Counted from the first letter of the stretch, positions 7,076 through 58,895 are shown. The stretch: 64,000 bases of DNA from Candidatus Poribacteria bacterium (GCA_965247285.1 CBDFHD010000002.1:364499-428498), one strand, 5' to 3'. Notes: generated by a model from the letters alone, not told the origin. A program made the numbers and translations.

Positions 7076-7121
7076 GTAGAATCTTTTTTGTAGTAAAATA
7101 TATAATTGCCGATAAAGTGTT

Positions 7122-7184
7122 GCTGGCGAAGGGTTTTTGCTTGGGCATTTCCCTGCGGATTTTCCCACGGAAACCTCGCCAGCG
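7122..7184. repeat. REP hairpin (GCTGGCGA..CCTCGCCAGC family) between convergent genes
   Basis: Inverted arms GCTGGCGAAGG / CCTCGCCAGC. Confidence 0.65.
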
Positions 7185-7230
7185 ATAGCGTGAAAGTCTA
7201 AATTCTCCTATTTCTACGTATTATCTGGTT

Positions 7231-8847
7231 TTACTCGATGTTTATGACGCTAAGAATATTCTTAAGCAGCTGGGCTTTGGTCATCCTTCCCGTGTAACTT
7301 CTAACAAATTTTCCATCTTGGAACACAATATAAGTAGGATGTGTCCTAACCTGATATTTTCCGGTTGTTTGTCGACTATCCGCATCACTAACATTCATTT
7401 TCGCGACAGCAAACGTGTTCCGGTTCTCTAAAGCAATTTCGGCGACAACTGGCGCCATTTGTTGACAGAACGGTCAGCCGTCCTTTATAAACTCAAGCAC
7501 GATAGGGATTTCTGATCCAAGCACAAGCGTATTAAACGTCGCATCGGTGACTTCAAATGGGATGCCGGAGGTTTTACTGGCGGTGGTAAACCTAATGTCG
7601 ATGTCGGTTGAATTGCCAGCCGCGTCCTTGACTTTTCCCGCAATGACGTAGGTTATCTCGTTGTCAAGTTCTTTCCCTTTGACTAACTCAAGCGTCCCTT
7701 TCTTGCCTGCAATTTTGCCGAGCCAACCCGCATCAGCACCTGCTGTGGTTTGCAGTGCGATGTTGCCAGTTACCTCTTCGCTGAATTCAACTTCGATCCG
7801 CCCACTGCTGTTAAGTGCTTCGGGGTCAACGTCCTTATCACCGTCGTTGACGCTTCCGCTGGTAATTTTGGGTGCCTCGGTATCTGGAACACGGACGGTA
7901 TAGGTGAGCGTTTGGACGCCATCCGCCCAAACGATGGTCAATGCGAGTGCCCCTGGGTCGAAGGGACCCGTGATCTCCACAGTTTTGCGAATAGTTGTGG
8001 CATCACCCGTACTCACAGTAACGTCCTCTGGTGGGTTGTCAAAGGTAAGTGTGATGGTATCATCCACAGTAAGTTCCGAGTTGCCTGCTGGGTTCGCACT
8101 AACGAATGCGGCAGGGGGTCTGATGGTATAGTTGAGGGTCTGTGTGCCATCCACCCAGGTGACAGTCAATGTGAGTGCCCCTGGGTCGAAGGGACCCATG
8201 ATTTCCACAGTTTTGTCAGTGACTGTAGCGATGCCTGCGCTCACAGTAACGTCCTCTGGTGGATTATCAAAAGTAAGAGTGATGGCATCGTCGACAGCAA
8301 GTTCCGAGTTGATTGCTGGGTTCGCACTAACGAACGCTGCGGGGGTTCTGATGGTATAATCGAGCGTTTGGGTGCCGTCTGTCCAAGCAATCGTCAACGT
8401 AAGGGGACCCGAATTAAAGGGACCTGTAATTTCCACGGTTTTGTCAGTGACTGTAGCGACACCTGTGCTTACTGTAACGTCCTCTGGTGGGTTGTCAAAT
8501 GTAAGGGTGATAGTATCGTTCACAATCAGCGGCGAGCCGATGGCTGGGTTCGCGCGAACGAACGCTACAGGTGGGCGGACAGTTTTACCCAAGTGACTCG
8601 CGACAAGCGTCAAATCGAGGATATTGACGGTGCCGTCCCCGTTGACATCCGGGTTAGGGGTCTGATCTGCAGTGGATGTCGTGCCAAAATGCGCGGCGAC
8701 CAACGTCAGATCAAGGATGTTTATCACTCCGTCGGCGTTGACATCGGATGCTCTTAAAGCGTCGAGTTCCGCATCTTGTGTATAGCCTACGGTTAAATTA
8801 GTGAAAATTAAACAGGTCGTTAGGAATAAAAAAATGATTTTTCTCAT
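7231..8847 (-). CDS. Secreted dockerin + 3x76-aa repeat + Ig-like + thioredoxin protein, predicted selenoprotein (U-P-F-C), 538 aa
   Basis: ORFs 7474-8847 and 7231-7458 join in frame: VLEFIKDG-TGA-PFCQQMAPVV. The TGA (7474-7476) is at the first Cys of the Trx CxxC. A GGCGCC-AGTT-GTCGCC hairpin starts 17 nt downstream. Confidence 0.85.
7891..8574 (-). repeat. Three intragenic 228-bp (76-aa) repeats
   Basis: PxAFVxANPA...TITLTFDNPPEDVTVS...TVEIxGPF...xDGxQTLxYTxR occurs three times. Confidence 0.95.
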
Positions 8848-8971
8848 CTGTTTTTCTCCGTGGATAGTTTATGCTTGCGTGCTGTACCAATCTTGCACTA
8901 CTTCGGGAATCGTTTGCAGATTTTCGATTGTGGTTTTACCACCGAAGTTACAAGCAGGAAATGATATAACT

Positions 8972-9580
8972 TTATTCGGTTTCATCAATCCCTAAGATTC
9001 CAAGGATACGTTGCACCAATTCAGCCTTAGGCATTGCCCCACTGAAGCCTTGGGCAATTTCTCCGTCTTTGAATACGATATAGGTCGGTGTTCCACGAAT
9101 ATGATATTCGGCTGTTTTCTCCGGTTGGGTGGTTACATCTACCTTGACGAAACTAAAAATCTCGCGATATTCCAATGCTACTTCTGCGACCACCGGTCTC
9201 ATTAGTATGCAATATATTCAGGCATCGTTTTTAAATTCTACGACAATAGGCAGTTCAGAACCCAAGACGACATCGTCAAAAGTTGCATCCGTGACTTCAA
9301 ACGGGATGCCGGATCTCCTACCAAAATGGCTCGCGACGAGCGTTAAATCGAGGATATTGACGATGCCATCGCCATTGGCATCCGGGTTAAGGCTCTGATC
9401 TGCGGTGGGGGGCTCGCCGAAATGCGCGGCGACCAGCGTCAGATCAAGGATATTTATTACGCCGTCAGCATTGATGTCGGACGCGCTTAAGGGGTCAAAA
9501 TCCGTGTCCTGTGTGTAGCCTACGGTTAAAGGACTCAAGATTAAACAGATCGTTAGCAGTAAAACCGTAATTTTTTTCAT
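8972..9580 (-). CDS. Secreted dockerin-thioredoxin paralog, predicted selenoprotein (U-I-Y-C), 202 aa
   Basis: ORFs 9218-9580 and 8972-9202 join in frame: VVEFKNDA-TGA-IYCILMRPVV, with the TGA at 9218-9220. A GACC-GGT-GGTC hairpin lies at the matching position. Confidence 0.85.
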
Positions 9581-9600
9581 CTGTTTTTTCCCTTAAGGGT

Positions 9601-10629
9601 TTATATTTGTGCTTGGTGCCATTCTTGAACTGCTTCCGGAATTGCTTGCAGATTTGCGATTGTCGTCTGAAGTGGGATAGCGCACTCCGGTCCAATCAGT
9701 GGCACCCCTGCGTCAAGATTCTTTACAACCTCTGCTTTAACGTCTTCCGGTCCTTTGGAAAACAGTGTTTCAGGATTGTTAATGTTTCCAACGAGCGCAA
9801 TGCGCTCTTTCACAATGTCCATAGATTCCTGCGGCTCGTTTTTGGAGTCGTAATGGAAGGCGGACATGCCGGTTTGCGCGATGTATTCCATTCTGTCAAC
9901 GGTGCGCCCACAGATGTGCAGGATTAAGGGGATCGGGATACGTTCAACAAATTCGATGTGGAGGTCCCGTAGGTAGCGTTGGTAGTATTCGCCACTGACG
10001 AGATCGCCTGTGGCGTGGTCGGGGAGCGTAAGCGCATCGGCACCTGCCTCGATTTGTGCGACACCAAATTGCACAGTGGCTTCCTTCATCCGATCGAGTG
10101 CGAGTTTCGTTTTACCCGGGTCATCGAGCGAGAGCAACAGGAAAGGTTCAACGCCGAAGCAGTGGTAACCGAGCGACCAGGGTCCCATGGTTTTCCCGAT
10201 GACAGCGACTTCATCACCGTATTCTTTTTTCAGGATTTTAATCGCTTCGAGTACGCATTGGGTATCTGGATGTGTCAAGAAGTCGTCAGGTATAACGACA
10301 TCGTCAACGTCTTCCCAGATCGGTTCTCGCATTCTAACCGTGGGCCAGTTGTCCTTCTGTTCCCACTGAATTTTACAACCGAGTGCGCTCGATTCTTGGA
10401 TAATTGTGAAAACGGGCATGATGGTATCGAACCCGAGTTCGGTATATCCTGTCGCGGCGAGTCGTGCCATGAGTTCTGGCTCTCGGTTTGCTTGTGGGAA
10501 AGGGGCATCGACGAGATCCATCAGTTCAACGGTCGCGACGGAAGTCGGATTGCAGATAGGTGTGCGATCGGTGGGTTCATTATTGAGCGCAGCGAGCACC
10601 CGTTCACGCCCTGTCATTGGTGTTTGCAT
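9601..10629 (-). CDS. MtaA/CmuA-type methyltransferase (uroporphyrinogen decarboxylase superfamily)
   Basis: MTGRERV.AAL, EAGAD, LHICG, GNI.NP and GPECAIP motifs. Confidence 0.85.
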   Translation of the reverse strand: MQTPMTGRERVLAALNNEPTDRTPICNPTSVATVELMDLVDAPFPQANREPELMARLAATGYTELGFDTIMPVFTIIQESSALGCKIQWEQKDNWPTVRMREPIWEDVDDVVIPDDFLTHPDTQCVLEAIKILKKEYGDEVAVIGKTMGPWSLGYHCFGVEPFLLLSLDDPGKTKLALDRMKEATVQFGVAQIEAGADALTLPDHATGDLVSGEYYQRYLRDLHIEFVERIPIPLILHICGRTVDRMEYIAQTGMSAFHYDSKNEPQESMDIVKERIALVGNINNPETLFSKGPEDVKAEVVKNLDAGVPLIGPECAIPLQTTIANLQAIPEAVQEWHQAQI

Positions 10630-10641
10630 CTTCAGTTTCCT

Positions 10642-11298
10642 TTAGGTTTGTTGACTTGGGGCGGCAAGTACGCCGCGTGCGGCACCCATCTCCTCTTCTC
10701 GTAGGATGACTCTGACGTTCGGGGCGCGGATCAGTAGAAGTCCGATAAGTGCGTCGTGGGAATGCCCACAGGCAAAACTGACAGTATCATTGTTATCGGT
10801 TTCAATGTTGTCCATTTCGCCCAATTTCATTAAGCCGCCAGCTATCGCTGAGATTCGCCGTGCTGCGCCTCTGCCTTCATCATTTGCGTTAACCCGATAG
10901 ATACCGTTTCCAGTTGAATCGACCGTGATGGTGAGTCGTGATTTCCTATCCAGTATGTTTAAAGGGCGTGGTTCGGTATGGGTGTTTGATGCGAGTTTGC
11001 ATGCCTCTAAGAAGACGCGACGACATGCGGCTTCATGGATATTCTTACAAGGGAAATAGAGCAGACCTTCGGGGGTTTTTAGCATGCCACCGAGTGTTTG
11101 CATTGTTTGTGCAATTGCCTCAATTCTCTCGGTAGCCCCCGTCATTTGGCTATAGGTATGAACAAGGAAAGCAGGGAAATCCGTTCCAGTCGTTGCATCG
11201 GCAATTTGCTGGTGATAGAGTCCAATAGTAATATCGTGGAAGTGTGGATCAATGGGTATGAGTTCAATACGTCTGCCGATGTCAACAATGCGTCGCAT
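10642..11298 (-). CDS. Conserved hypothetical protein
   Basis: Long ORF. The ATG at 11298 (MRRIVDIGRR) avoids overlap with the upstream gene. Confidence 0.65.
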   Translation of the reverse strand: MRRIVDIGRRIELIPIDPHFHDITIGLYHQQIADATTGTDFPAFLVHTYSQMTGATERIEAIAQTMQTLGGMLKTPEGLLYFPCKNIHEAACRRVFLEACKLASNTHTEPRPLNILDRKSRLTITVDSTGNGIYRVNANDEGRGAARRISAIAGGLMKLGEMDNIETDNNDTVSFACGHSHDALIGLLLIRAPNVRVILREEEMGAARGVLAAPSQQT

Positions 11299-11317
11299 AG
11301 GGATTCCCTCACAGCAA

Positions 11318-12253
11318 TTAGCGACGGGCGAGTCGACCGCCGTAGTGATTTTCATAGATATACTTGTAGGCGCGTTCGGAGAGCCGCCGCAGGATATAGG
11401 TGCGCCGATTTCTCCATTTGGTAAAGGACTGCCACCGATTCTTTCGGTTTGTCTTGGTCCTGTCCTCCATCAACCCGATAAAAACATAAGGTCTCGATTT
11501 GCCTTGCGGGTCTCGGAATACTAATATGCCGCCGTCTCCTACCAATCCGTAAACAGTCCCAGTTTTATTGTAAACCGCCACCGATGAAGGGATGTAGGTT
11601 TTTTTAAAGATATAGTCTCCATTTTTGAGTTTGAAGTACCACTTCATTTTTTCAGAATGGGGGAGTTGCTCGTGCCACAACCGCATAAAGAACGTGCCGA
11701 GATCACTCGCAGAAGTCATATTCCTGTAAGTCCGTCCTCCCTGTGGTATGTATTCAACAATGTGGGTCTGCTTAAAATAGGGGTAATTAACTTTCAGTAT
11801 CCGATTTACCCGTGCCGGTCCCCCAAGTAATCGAATAAAATAGTTGGTTGATGGATTTGAACTCCGTTGGATCATTGCTGTCAGGTGTCCCCGATTTATA
11901 GCAGTGTGTGCTTGCCGTCTGTGTTTAACTTCATGAAAATAGGCGAGCATAACGAAGTTCTTAATAAGTGAGGCTGCCATCATCTGCCGATCTTCGTTGA
12001 TCGATACTATTTTTTTATTTTTTGAAATGTCGTAGACGACAAAGCTTGTTCGATCGGTTGTTGACAGAATCCGGCGACTCCGCCGGTTTTTGATATAGAG
12101 CTCGAAGGTTGCCTCCAGAGGCGAATCAATTGTTCCCCGGAGTTTACTTGGGATGCTCCAATATTTTGCCGCTGGCGCGCTACATATCGGAAATAATAGC
12201 GCGATACTACAACAGATCACAAGAAGGTTTAACTTTCGTATATATCTAAACAT
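11318..12253 (-). CDS. Serine hydrolase, class A beta-lactamase-like
   Basis: SxxK (ASLIK), SxN (SSN) and KTG motifs in order; N-terminal signal peptide. Confidence 0.8.
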   Translation of the reverse strand: MFRYIRKLNLLVICCSIALLFPICSAPAAKYWSIPSKLRGTIDSPLEATFELYIKNRRSRRILSTTDRTSFVVYDISKNKKIVSINEDRQMMAASLIKNFVMLAYFHEVKHRRQAHTAINRGHLTAMIQRSSNPSTNYFIRLLGGPARVNRILKVNYPYFKQTHIVEYIPQGGRTYRNMTSASDLGTFFMRLWHEQLPHSEKMKWYFKLKNGDYIFKKTYIPSSVAVYNKTGTVYGLVGDGGILVFRDPQGKSRPYVFIGLMEDRTKTNRKNRWQSFTKWRNRRTYILRRLSERAYKYIYENHYGGRLARR

Positions 12254-14130: not shown

Positions 14131-14904
14131 ATGCGTTTTGAGAACAAGGTTGCCTTTGTAACAGGCGGCGGTGGACCGTTAGGTATCGGGAGAGCTGCGT
14201 GTTTGGCGTTCGCGCGTGAAGGCGCGTCTGTCGTTGTTGCCGGTGGTAGGAGTGCAGATGCTGTTGCCGCCGAAGTCCGCGCCGAGGGTGGAAAAGCTAT
14301 TGCTGTTCCATTAGATGTCACCGTGCCTGAGGCAGTTCAGGAAGCCGTAGAGATTGCAGTGGGGACATTTAAACGGATCGATATTCTCTTCAATAACGCT
14401 GGAATTCTCGGTGGACAGCCGTTGTTTGAAGTAACACCGGAGCAGTTTGACAGGGTAATGGCAGTGAATGTGAAGGGATGTCTTCTGTGTGCACAGGCGG
14501 TCGCTCAAGTGATGATTGCTCAAGGCATACGGGGACGAATCATTAACAACTCGTCTATTTTTGCCGAGGAATCTCACGTCGGTGTTTTGAGTTATTGTGT
14601 GAGTAAAGCTGCCCTGAATAGGCTCACGCGGAGTCTTGCACTGGAGCTTCGTCCACACGGTATCACCGTGAATGCTGTCGCACCCGGAGGTGGTGCCCCG
14701 ACCGGAATGAATGCTTCACGGAATCTTCCTGAAGATGATACCCTACCTGATTTACGGCCTGCTTCACCGGACACGCCGCCGCTTGAACGGGGGGCAACAG
14801 TATGGGACTATATCGGTGCAGTGTTGTTTCTTGCCTCTGATGAAGCCGCTTATATTAGTGGTGATATTATAACTATTGACGGGGGTGCCGTCTCGCGTCG
14901 ATGA
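14131..14904 (+). CDS. SDR family oxidoreductase
   Basis: VTGGGG..GIG, NNAG and YCVSK (YxxxK) motifs. Confidence 0.9.
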   Translation: MRFENKVAFVTGGGGPLGIGRAACLAFAREGASVVVAGGRSADAVAAEVRAEGGKAIAVPLDVTVPEAVQEAVEIAVGTFKRIDILFNNAGILGGQPLFEVTPEQFDRVMAVNVKGCLLCAQAVAQVMIAQGIRGRIINNSSIFAEESHVGVLSYCVSKAALNRLTRSLALELRPHGITVNAVAPGGGAPTGMNASRNLPEDDTLPDLRPASPDTPPLERGATVWDYIGAVLFLASDEAAYISGDIITIDGGAVSRR

Positions 14905-23959: not shown

Positions 23960-24769
23960 ATGATCAGCCGACAAGAGATTCAGGCTACTTGTGATGACAT
24001 CGTGCGCGAATTCGCGCCGTTACAAGTGATCCTCTTTGGTTCTTATGGGTATGGCACCCCTACGGAGGATTCAGATGTCGATTTACTCGTCGTCATGGCG
24101 ATTCCGGAGTCGGAGACGCGTCGCCAAGCGTCAGAAATTAGACGGCGCATCCCCCACCGCTTCCCGATGGATTTGCTTGTCCGGTCGCCGGAAGAGATTG
24201 CGTATCGCCTCTCATATAATGACTGGTTTCTTCGTGAGATAACTGAAAAAGGAGAGGTCCTTTATGGCACTGCGGATCCCTTGCAACGTGCGTTTGCGAG
24301 ATGCTCTGTTACACGCCGCGATGCGTTGGAAAAGGAGAAGGATGCAATGAATCCGTTGACATTGGAGTGGATTCAAAAAGCTGAGGGTGATTATACTATC
24401 ATGCACCAGAATTATTACTCATCGAATCCAATACACGATGCCATCTGCTTCCATGCCCAGCAGTGTGTTGAAAAATATCTCAAGGCGTGGCTTCAAGAAG
24501 CGAACATTCCCTTTACAAGGACACACGATTTAGAAAGGCTACTGAGTTTGATTATCCCTACGCTCCCTGATTGGGAAGCTTGGCAAGCCGATTTCTCGAC
24601 AATTTCTGAACATACGGTGGATTTCCGGTACCCGGGCAAAGCGGCGACTGCGGCTGATGTCCAAGACGCTATAAGAACTTGTGTTCGGGTTCGCCGATCG
24701 GTTCGGGAACAGTTGGGATTACCTCCCAATGTAGCAAGCGATGATCAGCTGCTGACCCCTGATGAATAA
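23960..24769 (+). CDS. Fused minimal nucleotidyltransferase (MNT) - HEPN protein, toxin-antitoxin-like
   Basis: LFGSY.YG...DSDVDL, then HAQQCVEKYLKA...THDL...RYP in one frame. Internal AAGGAG RBS before MNPLTLEW. Confidence 0.85.
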   Translation: MISRQEIQATCDDIVREFAPLQVILFGSYGYGTPTEDSDVDLLVVMAIPESETRRQASEIRRRIPHRFPMDLLVRSPEEIAYRLSYNDWFLREITEKGEVLYGTADPLQRAFARCSVTRRDALEKEKDAMNPLTLEWIQKAEGDYTIMHQNYYSSNPIHDAICFHAQQCVEKYLKAWLQEANIPFTRTHDLERLLSLIIPTLPDWEAWQADFSTISEHTVDFRYPGKAATAADVQDAIRTCVRVRRSVREQLGLPPNVASDDQLLTPDE

Positions 24770-30729: not shown

Positions 30730-31842
30730 ATGAAAACCTATAAATACCCGTTGGGTAAACAACTGAACACAATACGCATTGGTAATTTGCTTGACGATAT
30801 GTGGCAAGTGCATGAGTATTTCCATAAATGGCATCGTCAACGGTATAAAGACGGGCTGCCGTATGCGAACTACGCGGCAATGTGCACGCACCTCACTGAA
30901 CTTAAGAAAACCACACACCCACATTGGAACGCCTTGCCGAGCCAAGCGATCCAACAAGAGTTGAGACGGATTGACGCAGCGTATGACAGATTTTTCAAGA
31001 AACTCGGTGGTAGACCGAAAATCAAAAAGAGACACAAGTTTAAGTCTATCACCTATCCAGGAGAAGCGGGTTGGTCTCTGAAAAACAATCGTATCACCCT
31101 CACATTTCGCAAGTGGGATAAGGGTAAGTGGCGATTTGATAAAGTGCCTTACACTTTCCATAAACACCGCCAGTGGCACGGAACTATTAGTCGTATCACC
31201 ATCAAGCGAGATGCCTGTGGAAACTATTGGCTTTACATCATCACAACCTACACGGATTTTAAACCGCTGCCGACAACAGGTCAAAGCGTTGGGGCAGACT
31301 TCGGTATGAAAGACGCATATTTGACGCTTAGCACGAGTGAGAAGATACAACACCCACAACCTTTGAAACAGTCCTTGACGAAACTCCGCAAACTCAACAA
31401 AGCATTGAGCCGTAAGCAAAAAGGTTCGGGCGGTTGGTGGCGTGCTGTTCGTGAACTCGCACGGCTTTATCGAAAAATCATCAACCAACGCAAAGACTTT
31501 CATTGGCAACTCGCCACCGATCTTTGTAAGGCTTTCGACACAATCGCCATTGAAACTTTGAACCTGAAGGGCATGAAGAAACTTTGGGGATGTAAGGTCT
31601 CCGATCTCGCCTTCTACCAGTTCGTTGAGATATTGAAGTATAAGTGTATCAAACATAAGCGTCTTTTGAAGCAAGTCGGTCGATGGACTGCTACAACGAA
31701 ACCGTGTAGCGATTGTGGTTTTCACAACGAAACCCTAACACTTTCTGACAGACAGTGGATATGCCCTGAATGTGGTTCACACCACGATAGGGACATAAAC
31801 GCTGCGATAAACATATTGCGGGCAGGGATAGCCGTTATTTAA
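30730..31842 (+). CDS. tnpB: RNA-guided endonuclease TnpB
   Basis: RuvC VGADFG / IAIETLN / DRDINAAINI plus CSDC...CPEC zinc finger. Confidence 0.95.
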   Translation: MKTYKYPLGKQLNTIRIGNLLDDMWQVHEYFHKWHRQRYKDGLPYANYAAMCTHLTELKKTTHPHWNALPSQAIQQELRRIDAAYDRFFKKLGGRPKIKKRHKFKSITYPGEAGWSLKNNRITLTFRKWDKGKWRFDKVPYTFHKHRQWHGTISRITIKRDACGNYWLYIITTYTDFKPLPTTGQSVGADFGMKDAYLTLSTSEKIQHPQPLKQSLTKLRKLNKALSRKQKGSGGWWRAVRELARLYRKIINQRKDFHWQLATDLCKAFDTIAIETLNLKGMKKLWGCKVSDLAFYQFVEILKYKCIKHKRLLKQVGRWTATTKPCSDCGFHNETLTLSDRQWICPECGSHHDRDINAAINILRAGIAVI

Positions 31843-32031: not shown

Positions 32032-33993
32032 TTAACTCAGCAAGATTCGATAACCCGTGCTGACGCCCGTTGCCATTCCAACAAGTGCCCAGATTCCAGC
32101 GCAGGTCATCTCGCCAAGCACAAGCCCAAGGAATATCGGCCTCGCACCTCGATACATTCTCAATCCCCCGTACCTGACGAGAATATACTTTATCATCCAG
32201 CCTATAAAGATTGAGGGCCACAGCTTTAATGAGGCCCAAGAACTAAGCATTGTATACCCGATTGGATGAAGCGGCCACCACACGAAAACCCTTCTCAGCC
32301 ACATCAACAGCCCCATGAAAAGGCTGCCTCCGACCATAAAACCTGTGTTCGTCCAGTCCGTCCCGGTCTCGGCGTTAACGAGCACAGAAGTCAGCCACCG
32401 CATGTCGCCCGCCCCGCCTGTGTACGGCGCACGATGTGCATAGCTGACCTTGAGGACGGAATAATATGAGACAAGGGTTCCGATAACCATCGCCGCGCCC
32501 ATACCTATTAACAGCCCCCTCCGTTTGACCTTGACTTCATCGGCCGCCTTGAGACCGTTTGCGACATACGGCATCATAATCTCCCTCAAGTCGCGCGTTA
32601 GAGAGACCGGATGCATAAACAGCGATGTCATGGTTGAAGGATTGATTCTCGCCGAACCCAGCGTGGTAAAGAGAACGTAATGCGCTGAATACGAAGGATT
32701 GACAAAAGGAATTCCTCCGTGGATGACTTGCCATGTCAAGACAATGTAAATTCCTAAAAGCACCAGCACAAAAAGCAGTGCGAATCCCAACGACATTCCC
32801 ATCAGATGATTTGCAAACGCTAGCAGCAATATCCCGCCGACGAGACCGGTAATTGCCAAACCAGAGGGCATCGCCTCGTTTGAGTCATCGCTTTTGCGAA
32901 AGGCACTGACAAGCATGCTTCTGATGTGATGCCGTGCTATGAAAAGGGTGTAGATGACAAAGGTGAGGCACGCACCGATTTCCTGAGAAGCGCTGAATGA
33001 ATACGCGTTCCACTGCACGCCTGGACCTTGGGTGATTTGGAAACCGAGCATCGAGCCGATAAGACATTGGAGTTTGAAGAATAGAAAGAAAAACCACAGG
33101 CTAAACGACACCTCAAGCGGCAGTAAATAGCTGAACCCCACTATCGAACAATACAAGTTGAGTTGCAAAGGTCTCAGTGCACTCCAAGGCTTTTCAATTA
33201 AGTAGGGATGGGGATTGAATCGGACGGGAAATTCCGGCACGCCAGGGAAGAACGCATGAAGGCCGTTCAACGTGTGAATGCATAGGGGAACGGCAAATCC
33301 GACCCATAATGCTTTGTTCCTGAAGAGTGAATTTCTCGCTCCCGGCGGGTTGTTTGCCATCTCCACAGGCAACACAACCAGCGGAAAGCTACACCGCTCA
33401 ATCTCGACCCATTGTCTGCGCAGCAGCACCGAGAGGCATATCACAACGAAGTAGAGGACAAACACGTAAAGTGTCCAAGCGAATAGAGGTATCAGCCATG
33501 CTCCCCAGGGGATGGATTCACCCAAAAAAATGCCTTCATAAAAGGATTTGATAGCATTCTCATCACGAACAACGCGCCAGTGGGGAATATATTGATGGAA
33601 AAGTGCTTCCCAATCATTTTCGGGTGTTGCAAAATACTGGTAGGCGACAAGCGGGCGAAACGCATATCTCATCATGCCTGTCGAAGGAATGCCGGAGGCG
33701 GCTGCCATGATACACCAGATCGTCACCAATTCACCCGCCGACAGTGCGAGTTTGGGAGAAACTGCGCTCAAGATGCGGTTGCCAATCAGCACCAGGATGG
33801 TCAGGACAAAAAATGGACCGACAGGAAAATGACCACCAGCGAGAAAGACATTGCGAATCACGTAATCATTGTAAGGCGCAATCATACATTCCCCGGCGGC
33901 ACAGACGAGCCCAATGAGAACTGCCCGCGATGATATGCCAACAGATTTGCTCGTGGGGTTTAAGTAAGTATCGAACCGTTTTGACTTGTTCAT
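32032..33993 (-). CDS. DUF6785/DUF6784-type polytopic membrane protein
   Basis: L...ELVTIW, FATPEN.W and C-terminal WWPLHPIGY...RP.FLGL.LG motifs. Paralog at 45033-46973. Confidence 0.75.
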   Translation of the reverse strand: MNKSKRFDTYLNPTSKSVGISSRAVLIGLVCAAGECMIAPYNDYVIRNVFLAGGHFPVGPFFVLTILVLIGNRILSAVSPKLALSAGELVTIWCIMAAASGIPSTGMMRYAFRPLVAYQYFATPENDWEALFHQYIPHWRVVRDENAIKSFYEGIFLGESIPWGAWLIPLFAWTLYVFVLYFVVICLSVLLRRQWVEIERCSFPLVVLPVEMANNPPGARNSLFRNKALWVGFAVPLCIHTLNGLHAFFPGVPEFPVRFNPHPYLIEKPWSALRPLQLNLYCSIVGFSYLLPLEVSFSLWFFFLFFKLQCLIGSMLGFQITQGPGVQWNAYSFSASQEIGACLTFVIYTLFIARHHIRSMLVSAFRKSDDSNEAMPSGLAITGLVGGILLLAFANHLMGMSLGFALLFVLVLLGIYIVLTWQVIHGGIPFVNPSYSAHYVLFTTLGSARINPSTMTSLFMHPVSLTRDLREIMMPYVANGLKAADEVKVKRRGLLIGMGAAMVIGTLVSYYSVLKVSYAHRAPYTGGAGDMRWLTSVLVNAETGTDWTNTGFMVGGSLFMGLLMWLRRVFVWWPLHPIGYTMLSSWASLKLWPSIFIGWMIKYILVRYGGLRMYRGARPIFLGLVLGEMTCAGIWALVGMATGVSTGYRILLS

Positions 33994-34037: not shown

Positions 34038-35162
34038 TCAGTCGAGGGGATTGTCCGCCTCAAGCACTCGGCGTGCCGCAGAGGAGAGCCTTCCTTCCGC
34101 CGCGGCCCGTTCCACCCAATGGGCAGGTATGCCATTTGTCCACTTGGCCGGGCTTGCGTCGGGGTCTGGTGTCCGATAGGCTATCAGCAAGCCACATCGG
34201 GTCGGGGTTCCTGGCTTGCGATGGCCGACATGATGCGGCATGTGATGGGGAAACGAGACCATGCTCCCGGGCGGTAGCGAGAAGCGTACCATTTCCAACG
34301 GCTTGCGGGTGAAGGCGTGGATCTTTCCCTTCAGCCAGCCCGCTTTCATGGCGGCGTCATCATCGGGTCGCTCGGTGTTCCATTTGTACGGAATGCGGTA
34401 GAGATGAGCGCCCGGGATGACCCCAAGTTCGCCACCCTCCTCGATGGTTGCACCTTCTGGGTAGCAGAGCGTCCGAATACACTGCCGTTGCAGAAACTCG
34501 GTGGTAAGGGCGTGTCCGGTACCGATCGGATCTTCGACCTCGTACTGCCCCTGCCGATACTGGTGAGCATGCCACCGCCGCCCTATTGAGCCCGGCGTCC
34601 GGTTGAGCATGTTGCAGTGGTCGAGTATGAAGCGGTCACCGAAAAGTTTGGTGAATAGCTCCATCATCTGAGGGTGGGCGGTGGCGACATCCCTGATGAA
34701 GTCGTCGTATCCAATCGAGAAATGTTCCGGCATGACTCCCTGCGACTCGTACCGGCGTGTCACCAACGCAGGACCTGGGCCGAACAGCCCGGGGTCGCGC
34801 ATGTATTGCATCAGTCCTCGTGGCATGAAGCGCATCTGCTCTGAGCCCCCGCAACAAGTCGCCAAAAACTCCGGGGTGATTTGCTCCGGCAACGGCGGCT
34901 GTAGCCCCCGGCCCGCGAAGTCGATGGCAGCCCAGTCGGTGTCCATGACGATCTCATCGTTCATCTGCTGTAGTTTCTGCAAGCTCTCCGTCCACCGCTT
35001 GCGGCCGGCGTCGGTCAGTATACCCTCCCACACCCAATATCCTTCGCGCTCGAAGAATGTGCGGTCAAATGCCTGAAGCACTTCCGGCCGCAGCAGGTCA
35101 TGCACGCGGCTTGCTGGGGCGACGTTGTCGGTTTGACTCCAATGTATAGATGATGTGTCCAT
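34038..35162 (-). CDS. PhyH-like hypothetical protein (GC-rich)
   Basis: FEREGY.VW, RWHAH, VIPGAH and HHVGH motifs. Confidence 0.6.
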   Translation of the reverse strand: MDTSSIHWSQTDNVAPASRVHDLLRPEVLQAFDRTFFEREGYWVWEGILTDAGRKRWTESLQKLQQMNDEIVMDTDWAAIDFAGRGLQPPLPEQITPEFLATCCGGSEQMRFMPRGLMQYMRDPGLFGPGPALVTRRYESQGVMPEHFSIGYDDFIRDVATAHPQMMELFTKLFGDRFILDHCNMLNRTPGSIGRRWHAHQYRQGQYEVEDPIGTGHALTTEFLQRQCIRTLCYPEGATIEEGGELGVIPGAHLYRIPYKWNTERPDDDAAMKAGWLKGKIHAFTRKPLEMVRFSLPPGSMVSFPHHMPHHVGHRKPGTPTRCGLLIAYRTPDPDASPAKWTNGIPAHWVERAAAEGRLSSAARRVLEADNPLD

Positions 35163-35191
35163 TCGCTGTTCCTTTGATAGAAGTTCGACAG

Positions 35192-36811
35192 TTAAGATCT
35201 TTCGAGCGGATTCTTAGATACAGAAGAGCCAACGGTATCAATGGCAGTGCTAAATCCTGGACCTCCAGCCGCCACATAGCCATCGCTGGCGCCTGTTAAA
35301 TCGGGACTGACCCAGAAAGAATATAACTGTCCGTTTGTTAAATAAAACCTAAATTTCACCGACTTACCCGCCAGAGAAGATAAATCTTCTCCTTTTTTCC
35401 ACCTTACTAATTGACAGGTAGTATCCTTGCTTATGGGAACGCAGTTTATATGGGAATATGGCTCAATCACATTGCCTTGATCGTCTAAAATTTCAACTTG
35501 GAGCATACCCTTTTTTGTATTCGTATTCACAAAAAGATGCTTGCCCTTATTAAATATCACGGGTCTCGTTGTTAAAGATTCAGTAGATAAACCGGCATTC
35601 ATGGAAGCAAAACCGTCTCGGCGAAGTATTGCTAGTCCAGTCGTACCTCCTGCATACATATGTCTACCGAGTGTAGGTGACTCTCCGGACCAGGCGCCAA
35701 AATAAAAGTAAATCTTATCATTGACTACCAAACATCCACCACCTGCCGCATGAATATAACCCCTATTCCATCTGCCTTCCTTTCGCGATGCGGCTATAAA
35801 AGGACTGCGAACAGGTCTATGCCAGTGGAAACCATCGCGGCTATAACCTAACACCAGTTCATTAATCTTAGGGAATCCCCCTATGGCACATAGCTCATTG
35901 GGTGGACCTTTAAAAATTGCAAACAAGCCCAGAAGCAAGCTCTCATAGGCAACTGCGTTAACGTCATATAGCTGAGGTGAGTATCCGAGGTCAGGGTCAG
36001 CTGGGTCCAGTTCATCAGCTCTCGCCCAGAATACCACATCTTCCTTCTTCCATGAAGCGCCTTTGATAAAATCCTCGTGTTCGCGATAACTTCGGGTGCG
36101 TCCAAGCGTACGATGAGAGGTCCTAATACTGTAAACCCACTTTTTCCTGAAGGCATTATAGAAGAAAGTCGTATTATCCCCACAAGGACCCGTTCTTACT
36201 GGCTTCCCCCAGTGGATACCATCAAATGAGGTATAAACTTCCCCGCCTTCCCCGTCAGGAGAACGGAAGTATACAAACATTTTAAACCTTTGATTCGGGT
36301 CGTCTGTTTGGGGGTCTAACCAGACTGTGGCTCCATCTCGCCGATATCCTTCCCTTACCGGAAGTACCCTGTTAGTAGCTGGCACTACATCTAACATGGG
36401 TCTATCCCAATGTAAGCCATCTTCACTTATTGCATAACCAACACCATCGAACCATCCAGCATGATACCACATTTTAAATAACTGTTCTTCGGGATCATAA
36501 AAAACGCCGTCATTAAACGGAGAGGCAACCGGACATTTCCCATTATTGATCTCCAGTTGCGTTTCAGGCTTTAAAACCGGATTATCTTCATATAAGCGTG
36601 GTTTGTGAAAATCCCTTTTTAGATTGGTATTTTCAATGAGAAAGTCATCTACAAACAGTTGTCTTCCCTTATCTATATAAATAACTGTCGGGGGATTTTC
36701 TAAGTAGGGTACTGAGATAGGTGAAAGGGTTGTGTCACACAAATTTCGTGGGGGCCACTCTTCCGGCAGACGAATTCCATTATATAGAATTTCTTTCTCA
36801 TTATTTTCCAT
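35192..36811 (-). CDS. Five-bladed beta-propeller glycoside hydrolase (GH32/43-like clan)
   Basis: RQLFVDDFLI, S.DG.HW repeats, DNTTFFY and RRDGFAS motifs. Start at MENNEK. Confidence 0.7.
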   Translation of the reverse strand: MENNEKEILYNGIRLPEEWPPRNLCDTTLSPISVPYLENPPTVIYIDKGRQLFVDDFLIENTNLKRDFHKPRLYEDNPVLKPETQLEINNGKCPVASPFNDGVFYDPEEQLFKMWYHAGWFDGVGYAISEDGLHWDRPMLDVVPATNRVLPVREGYRRDGATVWLDPQTDDPNQRFKMFVYFRSPDGEGGEVYTSFDGIHWGKPVRTGPCGDNTTFFYNAFRKKWVYSIRTSHRTLGRTRSYREHEDFIKGASWKKEDVVFWARADELDPADPDLGYSPQLYDVNAVAYESLLLGLFAIFKGPPNELCAIGGFPKINELVLGYSRDGFHWHRPVRSPFIAASRKEGRWNRGYIHAAGGGCLVVNDKIYFYFGAWSGESPTLGRHMYAGGTTGLAILRRDGFASMNAGLSTESLTTRPVIFNKGKHLFVNTNTKKGMLQVEILDDQGNVIEPYSHINCVPISKDTTCQLVRWKKGEDLSSLAGKSVKFRFYLTNGQLYSFWVSPDLTGASDGYVAAGGPGFSTAIDTVGSSVSKNPLERS

Positions 36812-36857
36812 TATTTGAAAGCCTCCTTGCCTCTTCGTTCTCTCGAACTTTTTTATT

Positions 36858-38309
36858 TTAATGCTCATAAATTGGATTTGGGGGTATGCCCTGATCTTTG
36901 AATCGCTGGTAATCTCCGCTCCGAATGGGGATAAAATTACCGCGGATGCTGTAGATCCTGCCGTTGAAGAGTTTTACCTCGAGCCGCACCACCTTCTCCA
37001 TAAATTCTGAGACGGATGGGTGATTCTTCCACTTTGGTTCCCAAAAAAGATCATCACCCGTAAACGGTATGCAATCTTCAAAGGTATAACCTGGGTGAGG
37101 TTTCCCATCTGGATCTGTTATCTGAACCCGGACCTCCCCCTGAGGGGTCTCGACGTTGAGGATGAGTTTTTCACCGTGGAAGAAGAACAGCCGCGTCGTA
37201 AAAGATCCTGGACCGCTCTGCGGTTCAAAATAGGAAAATCCATCGAGCCTTAACTCGTGGGTTAATATTGCCCCTTCACCTAGATCCGGACGTGCGTGGA
37301 TCTGGGCATGTTCTCCCTTTGAGGCGCTGGAATAGATCCTGATCTTTTTGTCTTCAGTAATGACCATACTCGATGGGTAGATACAACCATACCCGAATTC
37401 ACCTGGCTCGGCGTTCGGTAAAAACGGCTCTCTGAGGGCTCGCTGGAAGTGCAACCCATTATAACTGTAAGCCAGTTGGCACCGCACCTTCCCATGTATG
37501 TACTTATTCGGGCTGTCAACAATAGGGGACACTTGATATATCCACAGGAATCCGACAAATATGCTCTCATAGGGGAAAACGGGCATACCATAGACCTCAG
37601 AGGCTGGCGTATCCTGGGCATCGGTCCGGATAGCCACCTCGGGTTGGGAGAAGGTACGCCAATCCTTGGTTTCATAAACCGAGATCCGGCGATCTCCCCC
37701 TTTAGGCCTTGCTGCAATAACGTAGCTACCCCGGATAGGGTTCCAGAAACCCGATACCGCCGGGTCTATTCCAAATGGGTGCCACCTAGCATCTTCGATG
37801 AGTTTCCAGGATAAACCATCGGGTGAAACATACAAAGGAGAGTGTCTTTGGGAGCCTTTTTTTAGGTTACTAGAACTGACAAAAGCCTTAATCCGCTCAG
37901 CGGCGTTATCCGTATGGGCATCAAAGAAACACGGGCCCCATTCGCCGAACCCTTCAAGAGGAAGGACCTGGTGAGAACAAGCACGATCTGGGATTTGTAT
38001 TTTATCCGATAGGTCTTTAATCTCCCATCTGACGCCGTCATCGCTTTCGACTGCTACCGCGACGTGCTGCATCCGACGGCCTGGCCTTGTGTATTGAGTA
38101 GCGAGTTGACCCTGATACAGACAACGCCAGCGACCGGTATTGGCGTCTACAAAGACAGTTGGATAGCCCCAGGAAGGATCGAGATGAGGGTCTATAAATA
38201 TCCCCTCAGTTACTAATTTAGGACGTCCGACATGACGGACGAGGTTTTCCCGGCGATGCAGGTACCAATCGTCAAAGAATAGTAGGGTCGAACTACCGTT
38301 ATTGTCCAT
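36858..38309 (-). CDS. Beta-propeller glycoside hydrolase-like paralog
   Basis: LLFFDD, SDDGVRW, SPDGLSW and RLDGFS motifs. Confidence 0.65.
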   Translation of the reverse strand: MDNNGSSTLLFFDDWYLHRRENLVRHVGRPKLVTEGIFIDPHLDPSWGYPTVFVDANTGRWRCLYQGQLATQYTRPGRRMQHVAVAVESDDGVRWEIKDLSDKIQIPDRACSHQVLPLEGFGEWGPCFFDAHTDNAAERIKAFVSSSNLKKGSQRHSPLYVSPDGLSWKLIEDARWHPFGIDPAVSGFWNPIRGSYVIAARPKGGDRRISVYETKDWRTFSQPEVAIRTDAQDTPASEVYGMPVFPYESIFVGFLWIYQVSPIVDSPNKYIHGKVRCQLAYSYNGLHFQRALREPFLPNAEPGEFGYGCIYPSSMVITEDKKIRIYSSASKGEHAQIHARPDLGEGAILTHELRLDGFSYFEPQSGPGSFTTRLFFFHGEKLILNVETPQGEVRVQITDPDGKPHPGYTFEDCIPFTGDDLFWEPKWKNHPSVSEFMEKVVRLEVKLFNGRIYSIRGNFIPIRSGDYQRFKDQGIPPNPIYEH

Positions 38310-41938: not shown

Positions 41939-43231
41939 CTAAAGACTTGGGCTTGCGATAGCACTAAACAGCATTAGCTGTGTTGCGTTTTGCAAGTCCA
42001 AATCTCGTGCTTCGTTCGTGTTTCCCGCTTCAGTGAGGGTGGTAACCCACCGCTCTCCACGAAGGGCCGCAGCAGCCCTGAAAAGTATGTTTATCGCAGC
42101 GTTGTGGTCTCGGTCTAAAGACGTGTCACAAGACTGACAATCGAAGGTGCGTATCGCCAGAGAGAGCTTCTTTGGCGACTTCTGACCGCAGCAAGAGCAA
42201 GTTTGTGAGGTGTTCTTGGGATTCACTTGGTGGAAGTGGAAACCGTCTCTTTCGGCTATGTTTCCACACCACTCAAAGAACTTACCCCAAGACGCATCAG
42301 AGATACTCTTGCTGAGGTGTTTATTCTGAACCATATTGGAAATGCCCAAATCTTCAGCGATAAGGACGTTATTCTTCTGATGATGATAAAGTTTGTAAAC
42401 GAGTTTACCCATAAAATCTTTTCGCTTGTTTGTTGTGCGCTCATGGTGCAGGGCAGTCGTGTGAACGGCTTTTTGCCAGCGGTTGCTCCCTTTCTTTCGG
42501 CGCGATTGTGTTTTAGAGTGTTTATGGAGCAAGCCTTCTGCTTTACGATACCAACGTGGGTTATCCTCTTTTTCGCCTTCAGAAGTCGTCAGATAGTGCG
42601 TTGTCCCCATATCCACGGCAATCGCAGCAGTCGGTTCAACTTTCGCGGTGTTAGGCATCTCAGAAGTGATATGAGCATACCAACCCGACGCTTTTTTCAC
42701 AAGAGACACTTCTTTCGGGTCTCCTTCTAAAGGACGATGCATGTATATCTTAACTTCGCCTAACTTCGGCACTTTTAAGCGATTGTGCCGGTAGTTGGTT
42801 TCTATGATTGGGTTCTCGCGAACGCGTATTGTCTGTTTGTCAGTGTCTTTCGTCTTTTTACGAACCACTTTGGTATATTTTCGTAGACTCCATGTCAGAG
42901 AACGCACGCGCTTTTTGTAGCGAGGGTATCCTTTTTTCGCAGCGTTTTCTTTACAACGTTTACGGAAGGCAGCAAACGCTTTATCGTTTCTCCGTAGGGC
43001 ATGGTTCTGAAAATCTTGGGGAACCTCGCGGAAATCGTCATATTTCTCACGCGCTGCCGTGAGAAGTGTCTGCTGGTCAGTGAGCGAAACAAAAATGCCT
43101 TCTGTTTCATACGCCACAGTCCGATCATGGCGGGCAGAGTTCTGTAACTCACATAGGTGGTCTAACCACGCTAATAATGTCGTTTCCTGTGCTTGTGTCG
43201 GATACACAGGATAGGTAAAAGTCAATTTCAT
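41939..43231 (-). CDS. tnpB: RNA-guided endonuclease TnpB
   Basis: TFTYPVYPT HTH start, RuvC AVDMGT / IAEDL / DRDHNAAINI and CSCC...CQSC finger. Confidence 0.95.
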   Translation of the reverse strand: MKLTFTYPVYPTQAQETTLLAWLDHLCELQNSARHDRTVAYETEGIFVSLTDQQTLLTAAREKYDDFREVPQDFQNHALRRNDKAFAAFRKRCKENAAKKGYPRYKKRVRSLTWSLRKYTKVVRKKTKDTDKQTIRVRENPIIETNYRHNRLKVPKLGEVKIYMHRPLEGDPKEVSLVKKASGWYAHITSEMPNTAKVEPTAAIAVDMGTTHYLTTSEGEKEDNPRWYRKAEGLLHKHSKTQSRRKKGSNRWQKAVHTTALHHERTTNKRKDFMGKLVYKLYHHQKNNVLIAEDLGISNMVQNKHLSKSISDASWGKFFEWCGNIAERDGFHFHQVNPKNTSQTCSCCGQKSPKKLSLAIRTFDCQSCDTSLDRDHNAAINILFRAAAALRGERWVTTLTEAGNTNEARDLDLQNATQLMLFSAIASPSL

Positions 43232-58800: not shown

Positions 58801-58895
58801 CCTTCGTGTGTAATGTCGTGTTTATTGTATTGCTGCAGCGTGGCGTAGTAGTCTCGGACTGCTTTGTGATTGGGTTTGAGGTTGAGTTGCGGCAT
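55821..58895 (-). CDS. Type ISP-related (helicase-less, IIG-like) restriction-modification enzyme: nuclease + N6-adenine MTase + specificity domain
   Basis: N-terminal DG...YWEAKD nuclease-like motif, YTPQPIVDF, DPFVGTG, GNPPY and an ISP-type C-terminus (YRPF, GNRSALEWV). Start at MPQLNL. Confidence 0.85.
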   Translation of the reverse strand: MPQLNLKPNHKAVRDYYATLQQYNKHDITHEGAVSSPFDTLLHTCAKQVNGTFVPQYPMRTAADNRIIIDGTILDEYGLPFAYWEAKDMDDDLSRSVIDKREAGYPLDNILFQNPQRAILYQNGHEVLDLDITEPANLIAALQYLCSYTAPALDNWQTAVADFRTHVPDLASELKERIEQRHETDPAFKKAFTDFYETCRTSINPELSQDAVEEMLIQHILTERIFRTVFDRSDFTRRNIIAREIENVSDVLMRQSMSRDEFLGPLNRFYVAIEQAATLCQDFSQKQHFLNTFYEKFFQGFSEDVADTHGIVYTPQPIVDFMVNSVAHILETEFGRSLSDTGVHIIDPFVGTGNFIVRLMQDIQGTALEAKYRHELHCNEVMLLPYYIASLNIEQEYFERMGTYLPFEGIALADTFELFEGQQQHIMFTQENTERVERQKAADMFVVIGNPPYNTQQVNENDNNKNRKYEVMDQRITETYVKDSKATLRNKLHDPYVKAIRWASERIGEEGVVAFVTNNGFLDGIAFDGMRKHLYQDFNRIYILDLKGNVRKDSMREGIPIGEKHTVFGLAAMVGITVTFFVKSRHYHDHKIYYSGTDWKATRQEKFNRVESAISINGIEWKEITPDKKHTWLTEGLHAEFDTFLPMGSKEARRVKKEAIDVVFKAYSLGVSTNRDAWVCNFTHNTLTDNMHKMIETYNDQAFKWERRLDRDTNVDDFVISDDTKIKWSRNLKRELKRIRIAEYAEDKVRNLLYRPFTKSYLFFDRIMNDEVSHFPSIFPTSETENRVICVSGIGSNKPFQSLMVDVIPDLHLTGDSQCFPFYIYNEDGTNPQENITDWALTEFRTHYDDDTITKWDIFHYNYSLLHHPDYREKYQMNLKRDLPHIPFAEDFWGFANAGAQLADLHVNYESVPKYDKLKYIETPGMTVDWRVEKMKLSKDKTQLVYNDFLTLDGIPAEAYDYRLGNRSALEWVVDQYRVKTDKRSGIVNDPNRESEPRYIVDLIASVITVSLKTVEIVKNLPPL

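Follow-up and report, generated by a model that had tools for sequence, protein, structure and literature searches.

Gene organisation of the locus

We analysed a 64,000-nucleotide (nt) stretch of DNA from a Candidatus Poribacteria bacterium (GCA_965247285.1 CBDFHD010000002.1:364499-428498), called the window here, in which two neighbouring genes between positions 7231 and 9580 are predicted to encode exported dockerin-thioredoxin proteins with selenocysteine (Sec) at an in-frame UGA. Listed conventionally, the region holds four minus-strand open reading frames (ORFs), at 7231..7458 (75 amino acids, aa), 7474..8847 (457 aa), 8972..9202 (76 aa) and 9218..9580 (120 aa). Read through one TGA each, they form two paralogous genes. 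The long paralog (8847..7231) is a single open frame with one internal TGA (7476..7474) in the context ...VLEFIKDG*PFCQQMAP..., and the short paralog (9580..8972) is likewise a single open frame with one internal TGA (9220..9218), in ...VVEFKNDA*IYCILMRP.... The initial annotation had described four broken ORFs, each paralog reading through one TGA at the first Cys of the thioredoxin CxxC motif, and this is the arrangement found. The features of the two genes are as follows.

8972..9580, minus strand: read-through coding sequence of the short paralog, 202 codons plus stop; predicted Sec at residue 121; signal peptide, dockerin and thioredoxin
9218..9220, minus strand: in-frame UGA of the short paralog (U121), first position of U-I-Y-C; aligns with an invariant Cys (C121) and with the first Cys of WCGPC
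9512..9580, minus strand: predicted Sec-type signal peptide of the short paralog (Sec here standing for the secretory pathway), about residues 1-23, MKKITVLLLTICLILSPLTVGYT, from sequence features and hydropathy
9329..9481, minus strand: dockerin type I module of the short paralog, residues 34-84, with two DxNxDGxxNILDL segments (PF00404)
9005..9298, minus strand: thioredoxin domain of the short paralog, residues 95-192, spanning the UGA (PF00085)
7231..8847, minus strand: read-through coding sequence of the long paralog, 538 codons plus stop; predicted Sec at residue 458
7474..7476, minus strand: in-frame UGA of the long paralog (U458), first position of U-P-F-C
8590..8748, minus strand: dockerin type I module of the long paralog, residues 34-86 (PF00404)
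7906..8524, minus strand: immunoglobulin (Ig)-like tandem repeat of the long paralog, 2.7 copies of 228 nt (76 aa); Tandem Repeats Finder, 79% matches, score 732; CopC-like Pfam hits
7582..7884, minus strand: Big_5 bacterial Ig-like domain of the long paralog, residues 322-422 (PF13205, E 1e-12)
7255..7554, minus strand: thioredoxin domain of the long paralog, residues 432-531, spanning the UGA (PF00085)

The source metagenome assemblies in ENA annotate the fragments apart, as a 120-aa Dockerin, a 76-aa Thioredoxin and a 457-aa Dockerin protein, so that the splitting by standard pipelines that had been anticipated for this architecture has in fact occurred. An exact look-up of the 120-aa ORF found its record, and one of the 457-aa ORF returned none.

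A gene of the URO-D family (9601..10629, minus strand) ends 20 nt upstream of the start of the short paralog. This adjacency is kept in most related loci (L160, L162, L164, L167 and L169; L numbers are our labels for loci). Co-transcription of the URO-D gene and the short paralog is possible; no functional link between the two is evident.

Domains, fold and N-termini

Pfam was run on the read-through proteins with Cys in place of the stop. Dockerin_1 (PF00404, cutoff 22.9 bits) matched the long paralog at E 3.6e-13 (49.9 bits) and the short paralog at E 7.1e-11 (42.6 bits), over profile positions 2-56 of 57 and with both calcium-binding DxNxDGxxNILDL segments visible. The duplicated dockerin pair that had been noticed by motif in each paralog is therefore also recognised by the profile, above its cutoff. 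Thioredoxin (PF00085, cutoff 23.5 bits) matched at E 2e-16 (60.3 bits) in the long and E 2.6e-19 (69.6 bits) in the short paralog, in both genes as one stretch running across the TGA and covering profile positions 4-101 of 103. The long paralog has extra Pfam domains, Big_5 and CopC-like Ig, and its domain order is signal peptide, dockerin, three 76-aa Ig-like repeats, Big_5 and thioredoxin.

In a phmmer comparison with the PDB, classical thioredoxins align over the full length of the C-terminal 113 residues, and the TGA falls on the first Cys of WCGPC. The best match of the thioredoxin domain of the short paralog is thioredoxin m (E 2e-18), whose S-I-P-T cis-Pro loop aligns with G-T-P-T; the Pro of this loop (P165) is invariant in homologs. 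The canonical Trp preceding the first Cys and the GP dipeptide are both missing at the U/C-x-x-C site. A structure was available as the AlphaFold2 model of a syntenic Cys ortholog, P0001, which is 75% identical and is not itself a Sec form. The model has a predicted local distance difference test score (pLDDT) of 85.5 and shows a confident dockerin region followed by a thioredoxin domain, and its top PDB hits in Foldseek are solved thioredoxins (template modelling score, TM, 0.91; root-mean-square deviation 1.1 A).

The N-termini of both paralogs begin with MKK or MRK followed by a hydrophobic core, with Kyte-Doolittle maxima over 11 residues of 3.1 and 2.9. In hydropathy and sequence features they fit Sec-type signal peptides, and the basic start and hydrophobic core agree with the signal peptide previously proposed for each paralog. 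In the P0001 model the N-terminus is a helix at residues 2-16, with mean pLDDT of 67 over residues 1-10 and 52 over residues 11-20, and pLDDT below 50 at residues 17-26. A lipoprotein N-terminus was considered and rejected: L-T-I-C is not a lipobox and its Cys is not conserved in homologs. Neither protein contains a glycoside hydrolase or carbohydrate-binding module domain by Pfam, and neither is classed as a cellulosome component.

Conservation of the TGA codon among relatives

A protein search returned 463 relatives. Among the best 120 clusters (90% identity), 87 end exactly one residue before the site, and the other 33, which are full-length (about 200 aa), carry CxxC. No residue other than Cys was seen at the site, either in the 33 of 33 full-length protein clusters or in five DNA loci with a sense codon there, and C121 is invariant in 13 full-length homologs. 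At the DNA level, in sites drawn from Poribacteria genomes and metagenome assemblies, the column of the first Cys of CxxC holds TGA in 28 sites (18 of the short type and 10 of the long type, the window counted), TGT or TGC in five, and TAA or TAG in none. The frame after each TGA stays open for 76-91 codons. TGA-bearing orthologs of the short paralog in L001 and L080 are 83-84% identical to it, and TGA-bearing orthologs of the long paralog are found in L001, L002, L004, L005, L006, L008, L018, L080 and L160.

Every related locus in the species-representative genome collection belongs to a Candidatus Poribacteria metagenome-assembled genome (MAG), and other proteins of the window are 86-97% identical to Poribacteria proteins. 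As far as seen, the dockerin-thioredoxin family is restricted to Poribacteria. A scan of metagenome contigs used patterns derived from the dockerin, and 79 of its 80 loci encode unrelated dockerin proteins, only L080 being a family member.

Sec and Cys forms have a neighbourhood in common, which reads PQQ_2/BamB-like, beta-lactamase2, hypothetical, URO-D, [short], [long], BatA/VWA, Laminin_G_3, BacA, and they are therefore orthologs. Cys-containing orthologs, which the initial annotation had suggested looking for, are thus present at the same syntenic locus, with a non-Cys residue never seen. Among the 18 short paralogs the ratio of nonsynonymous to synonymous substitution (dN/dS) is 0.17 over the 75 codons after the UGA and 0.17 over the 30 codons before it, with dS at about 1.3. 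Since the two values are identical, the part downstream of the TGA must be translated. For the long paralog dN/dS after the UGA is 0.34-0.47 in an ungapped comparison.

These results bear on two other accounts of the genes. It might be supposed that they are pseudogenes by nonsense mutation, or products of sequencing or assembly error, and the window does hold one real case of this kind, a TGA at 53457 in a DUF5695 gene (see below). The thioredoxin genes, however, have TGA in 28 sites from independent assemblies, always that codon and always in the column of the catalytic Cys; the downstream frame is open and under purifying selection, and the hairpin that follows is constrained at the RNA level. 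We regard this account as extremely unlikely. It had already been argued that two nonsense mutations at one catalytic codon were improbable, and recurrence of the same TGA across independent assemblies supports that argument and excludes a misread TGC or TGT.

It could also be that the UGA is mainly a leaky or regulated terminator. The chief products would then be the dockerin-only forms of 120 aa and 457 aa and the full-length protein a minor, selenium-dependent form, with selenium supply setting the ratio of dead to active cohesin ligand. The truncated products would keep a complete signal peptide and dockerin, and bacterial Sec insertion is generally inefficient and competes with release factor 2. 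Against this, the thioredoxin part is as constrained as the dockerin part by the dN/dS values above, Cys orthologs make the full-length protein only, and nothing indicates a function for the truncated forms. As a replacement for Sec-containing products we think it very unlikely indeed; it is in any case an addition to the selenoprotein interpretation and not an alternative to it.

The genetic code and a negative control

At least nine long ORFs of the window have TGA as their stop. Several are genes that are complete by Pfam, with lengths that match those of orthologs, namely an SDR, a PhyH and the BamB-like PQQ_2 protein; the profile match of the SDR (14131..14904), for example, runs to position 234 of 236 before its TGA. 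TGA does not, therefore, serve as a sense codon in general here. A genetic code in which TGA is read as Trp (table 4) or Gly (table 25) would have only the in-frame TGAs themselves in its favour. In addition to the genes that end in TGA, it is opposed by the homologs, which carry Cys at the site and not Trp or Gly, and by the rarity of in-frame TGAs inside recognisable genes, of which there are only three in 64 kb, one being a private Arg-to-stop change. Such a code is next to impossible. The other TGA-separated ORF pairs in the window were examined and are non-coding frames.

The third in-frame TGA (53457..53459) splits a DUF5695 (PF18951) gene of 894 codons at 52107..54791 on the plus strand, 52107..53459 and 53691..54791 being two halves of this one gene according to Pfam. 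It was rejected as a second selenoprotein: the residue is Arg in 34 of 34 uninterrupted 894-aa homologs (GGSDD-R-CFA), and no hairpin follows the TGA. This TGA is therefore a private CGA-to-TGA nonsense change or a sequencing error. The thioredoxin TGA sites differ from it on every criterion, and the private Arg-to-TGA change shows that conservation, and not an in-frame TGA alone, must be the criterion for calling selenoproteins.

A SECIS-like hairpin after the UGA

A hairpin about 17-19 nt after each TGA had been quoted in the initial annotation, and both are present, at 7457..7440 and 9200..9186. The upper stems begin 17 nt after the UGA in both paralogs (the GACC/GGUC core first noticed begins at 19 nt) and the apical loop begins 23 nt after it. 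They resemble the selenocysteine insertion sequence (SECIS) of bacteria.

9177..9210, minus strand: SECIS-like element of the short paralog; upper stem-loop GAGACC-GGU-GGUCGC at 9200..9186, with a weaker candidate lower stem around it
7440..7457, minus strand: SECIS-like stem-loop of the long paralog, UGGCGCC-AGUU-GUCGCCG, from comparative data

For comparison between loci the UGA and the 63 nt after it were aligned, with columns counted from the U of UGA as 1. Three hairpin types were distinguished.

Short A, columns 21-35: G-N-N-ACC GGU GGU-N-N-C, in the window, L001-L003, L010-L016 and L080
Long, columns 20-37: UGG-N-GCC AGUU GUC-N-CCG, in 10 loci
Short B, columns 26-37: CUGU GGUC ACAG, in L004-L009, with the stem shifted 3' relative to type A

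The sequences compared are related and not independent, and all shuffle and Fisher figures that follow overstate significance. In type A, 93% of cells are paired and the covariation score is 0.282, against 0.145 in shuffled alignments (0 of 500 reach the observed score) and at most 0.085 in slid controls. Pair 22-34 is A-U in six copies, C-G in four, G-U in one and a mismatch in one (the window copy), and pair 23-33 is G-C in seven, A-U in four and C-G in one. In the long type all cells (100%) are paired, with pair 23-34 varying between C-G (five), A-U (one) and U-A (one). Several of the paired changes are non-synonymous on both sides, exchanging R, K or A together with A or S, or A, V or E together with A, T or S. 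RNA pairing has evidently been preserved at the expense of protein sequence. Third codon positions tell the same story: in the long type 7 of 7 within the hairpin are invariant, as against 8 of 67 outside it (p = 4e-6), and in type A 5 of 7, as against 1 of 67 (p = 8e-6). The loop G occupies column 28 in 28 of 28 Sec sites, where five of five Cys DNA forms have A (p = 4e-6), and the Val codon that supplies this G is kept in only 2 of 33 Cys proteins.

A G as either of the two opening nucleotides of the apical loop is a reported hallmark of bacterial SECIS elements (PMC13582414). As in E. coli fdhF and the bSECISearch consensus, the hairpins described here lie within the ORF after the UGA and have a G first or second in the loop (GGU, AGUU and GGUC). 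They differ from the bacterial prototype in having an upper stem of six pairs with a loop of 3-4 nt, in occurring in three registers or loop types within one family, and in a lower stem that is not clearly conserved. The spacer of the minimal E. coli SECIS is 11 nt, shorter than the 17 nt here, while the 23 nt to the loop is within the bSECISearch range. A conserved lower stem was tried and rejected, with only pair 16-40 supported and pairs 20-36 and 10-45 not conserved, and the upper stem-loop alone is claimed. The proposal of a SECIS hairpin just 3' of the UGA is thus upheld by position, loop G, covariation and the freezing of synonymous sites, and by the degradation of the hairpin in Cys forms. 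A scan for consensus terminators flagged the hairpin of the long paralog (7440..7457, minus strand) as terminator-like, a false positive inside a coding region.

Exchange between Sec and Cys

A quick neighbour-joining tree of the thioredoxin domains, built without support values, separates a short and a long clade, both of them mostly Sec. The five Cys forms are scattered among the two clades, and Sec and Cys must therefore have been switched several times. The Cys form of L160, which is closest to the clade of the window, retains four of the six stem pairs and has lost the loop G, a pattern that would fit a recent change from Sec to Cys. For the evolution of SECIS elements the family is in effect a natural experiment, with Sec/Cys switches at an orthologous locus, amino-acid changes forced by the hairpin, and loss of the loop G together with Sec.

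At L160:5001..7089 a Cys (TGT) short paralog lies directly upstream of a Sec (TGA) long paralog, so that both states are found in one genome. At L169:10732..13203 (ena:ERZ25072854) the long paralog is interrupted by a DDE transposase gene (DDE_5/DDE_Tnp_1, 11082..12095), and is therefore dispensable in at least one strain; the short paralog of this locus is 99% identical to that of the window.

Selenocysteine machinery and the identity of the inserted residue

Published data place the Sec machinery in this phylum. Clusters of orthologous groups for SelA, SelB and SelD occur in the Poribacteria bins bin70 and bin44 and in the WGA-3G genome (Slaby et al. 2017, Table S4, PMC5649159), SelA and SelB are enriched in sponge symbionts (PMC5649159), and a 2026 survey counts Poribacteria among the phyla with Sec-type group 4 hydrogenases (PMC13582414). 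From this phylum-level evidence we infer that the lineage studied here has the machinery.

It is conceivable that the UGA is recoded with the help of SECIS and SelB but to Cys, either by a tRNA of the tRNA(ReC) or selC* type or by Cys-tRNA replacing Sec-tRNA when selenium is scarce. tRNA(ReC)-like tRNAs with UCA or GCA anticodons do recode UGA with a SECIS in some Sec-using genomes (PMC13582414), and insertion of Cys would fit the comparative evidence, that is the UGA, the hairpin and the translated downstream region, as well as insertion of Sec. A Cys codon would, however, serve equally at no cost. That TGA and TGY have replaced each other repeatedly, the hairpin G being lost in the process, suggests functionally distinct states, and the published Poribacteria bins contain SelA and SelD, proteins required for Sec alone. 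Recoding to Cys is in our judgement very unlikely.

Taken with a conserved UGA, a pair of Cys and Sec states, a translated downstream region, a constrained RNA hairpin and a common domain architecture, the sequences make it highly probable that both are genuine Poribacteria selenoprotein genes in which UGA is recoded to Sec, and that their products are exported dockerin-thioredoxins. The redox selenoproteins that the initial annotation had seen in them are favoured alike by TGA conservation, Cys orthologs, purifying selection and the constrained hairpin.

Several points weigh against this interpretation. ARAGORN found no tRNA-Sec in L001-L060 or the window, and local tblastn with E. coli SelA, SelB and SelD as queries found no selA, selB or selD in the window or in about 1.5 Mb of related Poribacteria loci; its sole match, in L011, was translation initiation factor IF-2 and was rejected. 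Folded alone, the hairpins are not unusually stable (z = 0.0 and -1.6 to -2.2 against shuffles), and their significance comes from comparative data, not from single-sequence stability, with the relatedness of the sequences mentioned above to be borne in mind. No Rfam match was obtained for the whole window at the gathering threshold or for 7100-9700 at E up to 10. The hairpin of the L004-L009 clade is in a different register and shows no covariation. The stem of the short paralog in the window has an A.G mismatch at pair 22-34, the sole one among 12 type A copies, and recoding may be less efficient there than in relatives. Finally, the neighbouring genes include no DsbD, CcdA or other periplasmic reductant.

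Proposed mechanism and likely function

From sequence we infer selenium insertion, export, cohesin binding and the direction and substrate of the redox reaction, and a mechanism may be proposed as follows. The in-frame UGA would be recoded to Sec during translation, the recoding signal being a short SECIS hairpin within the coding sequence to which SelB carrying Sec-tRNA(Sec) presumably binds. The products, each with a Sec-type signal peptide, a type I dockerin and a C-terminal thioredoxin fold, would then be exported, and the Ig-like repeats and Big_5 domain may act as a spacer in the long paralog only. In the thioredoxin, Sec would take the place of the attacking Cys (U-I-Y-C and U-P-F-C). 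Such a protein most likely acts as an extracytoplasmic thiol-disulfide or selenylsulfide oxidoreductase, its location held by binding of the dockerin to cohesin-bearing Poribacteria proteins.

The dipeptides between U and C (IY and PF) include an aromatic residue, as in sites of the glutaredoxin or DsbA type, where cytoplasmic thioredoxin has GP. Because of these aromatic dipeptides and of the predicted export, a role in disulfide exchange, or as an oxidase or isomerase, rather than as a reductant of the cytoplasmic type, is suggested by analogy.

Relationship to known UxxC selenoproteins

Published tables list the Sec thioredoxin (PF00085, UxxC) as an experimentally verified bacterial selenoprotein family with WP_010956703.1 as representative (PMC9312934), and it corresponds to the 'Trx-like 1' tabulated in the Global Ocean Sampling marine selenoproteome, among the commonest marine selenoproteins (PMC2398784). 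The proteins described here are like this family in fold, in having Sec at the first CxxC position, in having Cys homologs, and in a SECIS that lies in the coding region after the UGA. The tables of both sources give the thioredoxin domain and Sec motif only and are silent on signal peptides or extra modules (PMC9312934, PMC2398784). The Poribacteria proteins differ in their added modules, namely a signal peptide, a type I dockerin and, in the long paralog, Ig-like repeats, and in having IY or PF between U and C in place of GP. To our knowledge, the UxxC thioredoxin selenoproteins known so far are single-domain and presumably cytoplasmic.

Other UxxC selenoprotein families with a thioredoxin fold are also tabulated, namely thiol:disulfide interchange (PF13098), DsbA-like (PF01323) and DsbG-like (PF13462) proteins (PMC9312934; PMC2398784). 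With these the Poribacteria proteins have in common a thioredoxin fold bearing the UxxC motif. These families, to judge from their Cys homologs, are probably extracytoplasmic thiol-disulfide oxidoreductases, extracytoplasmic location being established for Dsb families. The Poribacteria proteins differ from them in scoring 60-70 bits with PF00085 as against 32-41 bits with Thioredoxin_2 and in having no DsbA helical insert, the model of the Cys ortholog being a plain thioredoxin (TM as above). None of these families is described with a dockerin.

UxxC thioredoxin selenoproteins are thus already known, and what is new is the architecture of signal peptide, dockerin and Ig-like domains in a phylum that encodes cohesins. 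In the literature searched we found no selenoprotein with a dockerin and no account of dockerins or cohesins in Poribacteria. The finding links two features that had not been connected before, the enrichment of SelA and SelB in sponge symbionts (PMC5649159) and the abundance of dockerin and cohesin modules. It also matters for annotation, the family being misannotated in all the records examined: 87 of the 120 best clusters stand as hypothetical proteins of 120 aa with a dockerin only, and the catalytic half is either a separate call or missing. Once this is corrected, the exported redox repertoire predicted for a dominant sponge symbiont changes.

The dockerin-cohesin context

Type I dockerins are found on cellulosomal enzymes, and non-cellulosomal dockerin and cohesin modules are spread across bacteria and archaea. 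The modules described here are like type I dockerins in scoring above threshold with Dockerin_1, in the duplicated calcium-binding segment and in the presence of cohesins in the same phylum. They are unlike those of cellulosomal enzymes in that the cargo is a redox selenoprotein and in that the dockerin stands at the N-terminus, immediately behind the signal peptide. Of ten proteins with a dockerin taken as a sample from other loci, three also had a cohesin, three were solute-binding proteins, one was an esterase and three were WD40 proteins. The cohesin (PF00963) plus dockerin proteins of Poribacteria are at L019:8975..10264, L034:8834..10171 and L038:8771..10156, and further loci with dockerin cargo are L027, L031, L042, L022, L026, L028 and L039. 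In the ABC-transporter solute-binding proteins (SBP_bac_5) the dockerin again follows the signal peptide at the N-terminus. Among the Poribacteria proteins examined there was no scaffoldin bearing a carbohydrate-binding module.

Judged by their domains, the dockerin and cohesin proteins of Poribacteria look like a non-cellulosomal cohesin-dockerin system. A single MAG is the source of both the cohesin protein of L019 and the Sec pair of L005. Because cohesin-dockerin proteins share a phylum, and in this one case a MAG, with the Sec pair, it is plausible that the Sec-thioredoxins are tethered to a cohesin scaffold of the envelope. A wider picture may be offered tentatively, at somewhat short of an even chance. 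An envelope assembly of Poribacteria would tether solute-binding proteins, esterases, WD40 proteins and both Sec-thioredoxins, the last forming a scaffold-bound, selenium-dependent redox station at the interface between symbiont and sponge; the Ig-like repeats would set the reach of the long paralog, and selenium supply would choose between the catalytic and the truncated ligand. If this is true, no selenoprotein before them would have been shown to owe its position to a dockerin.

Other genes in the window

Two genes of the IS605-family OrfB/TnpB type (OrfB_IS605 with a Cas12f1-like TNB domain) lie at 30730..31842 on the plus strand and 41939..43231 on the minus strand, and a similar OrfB/TnpB gene adjoins the syntenic locus in L164. 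A pair of large paralogous genes with DUF6785 and DUF6784 lies 11 kb apart on the minus strand (32032..33993 and 45033..46973), the first being followed by three more long ORFs without a Pfam match (34038..38309). Two genes are of defence type: a Type ISP restriction-modification enzyme (55821..58895, minus strand) with coupler, N6 methylase and Type_ISP_C domains, and a fused nucleotidyltransferase-HEPN protein (23960..24769, plus strand).

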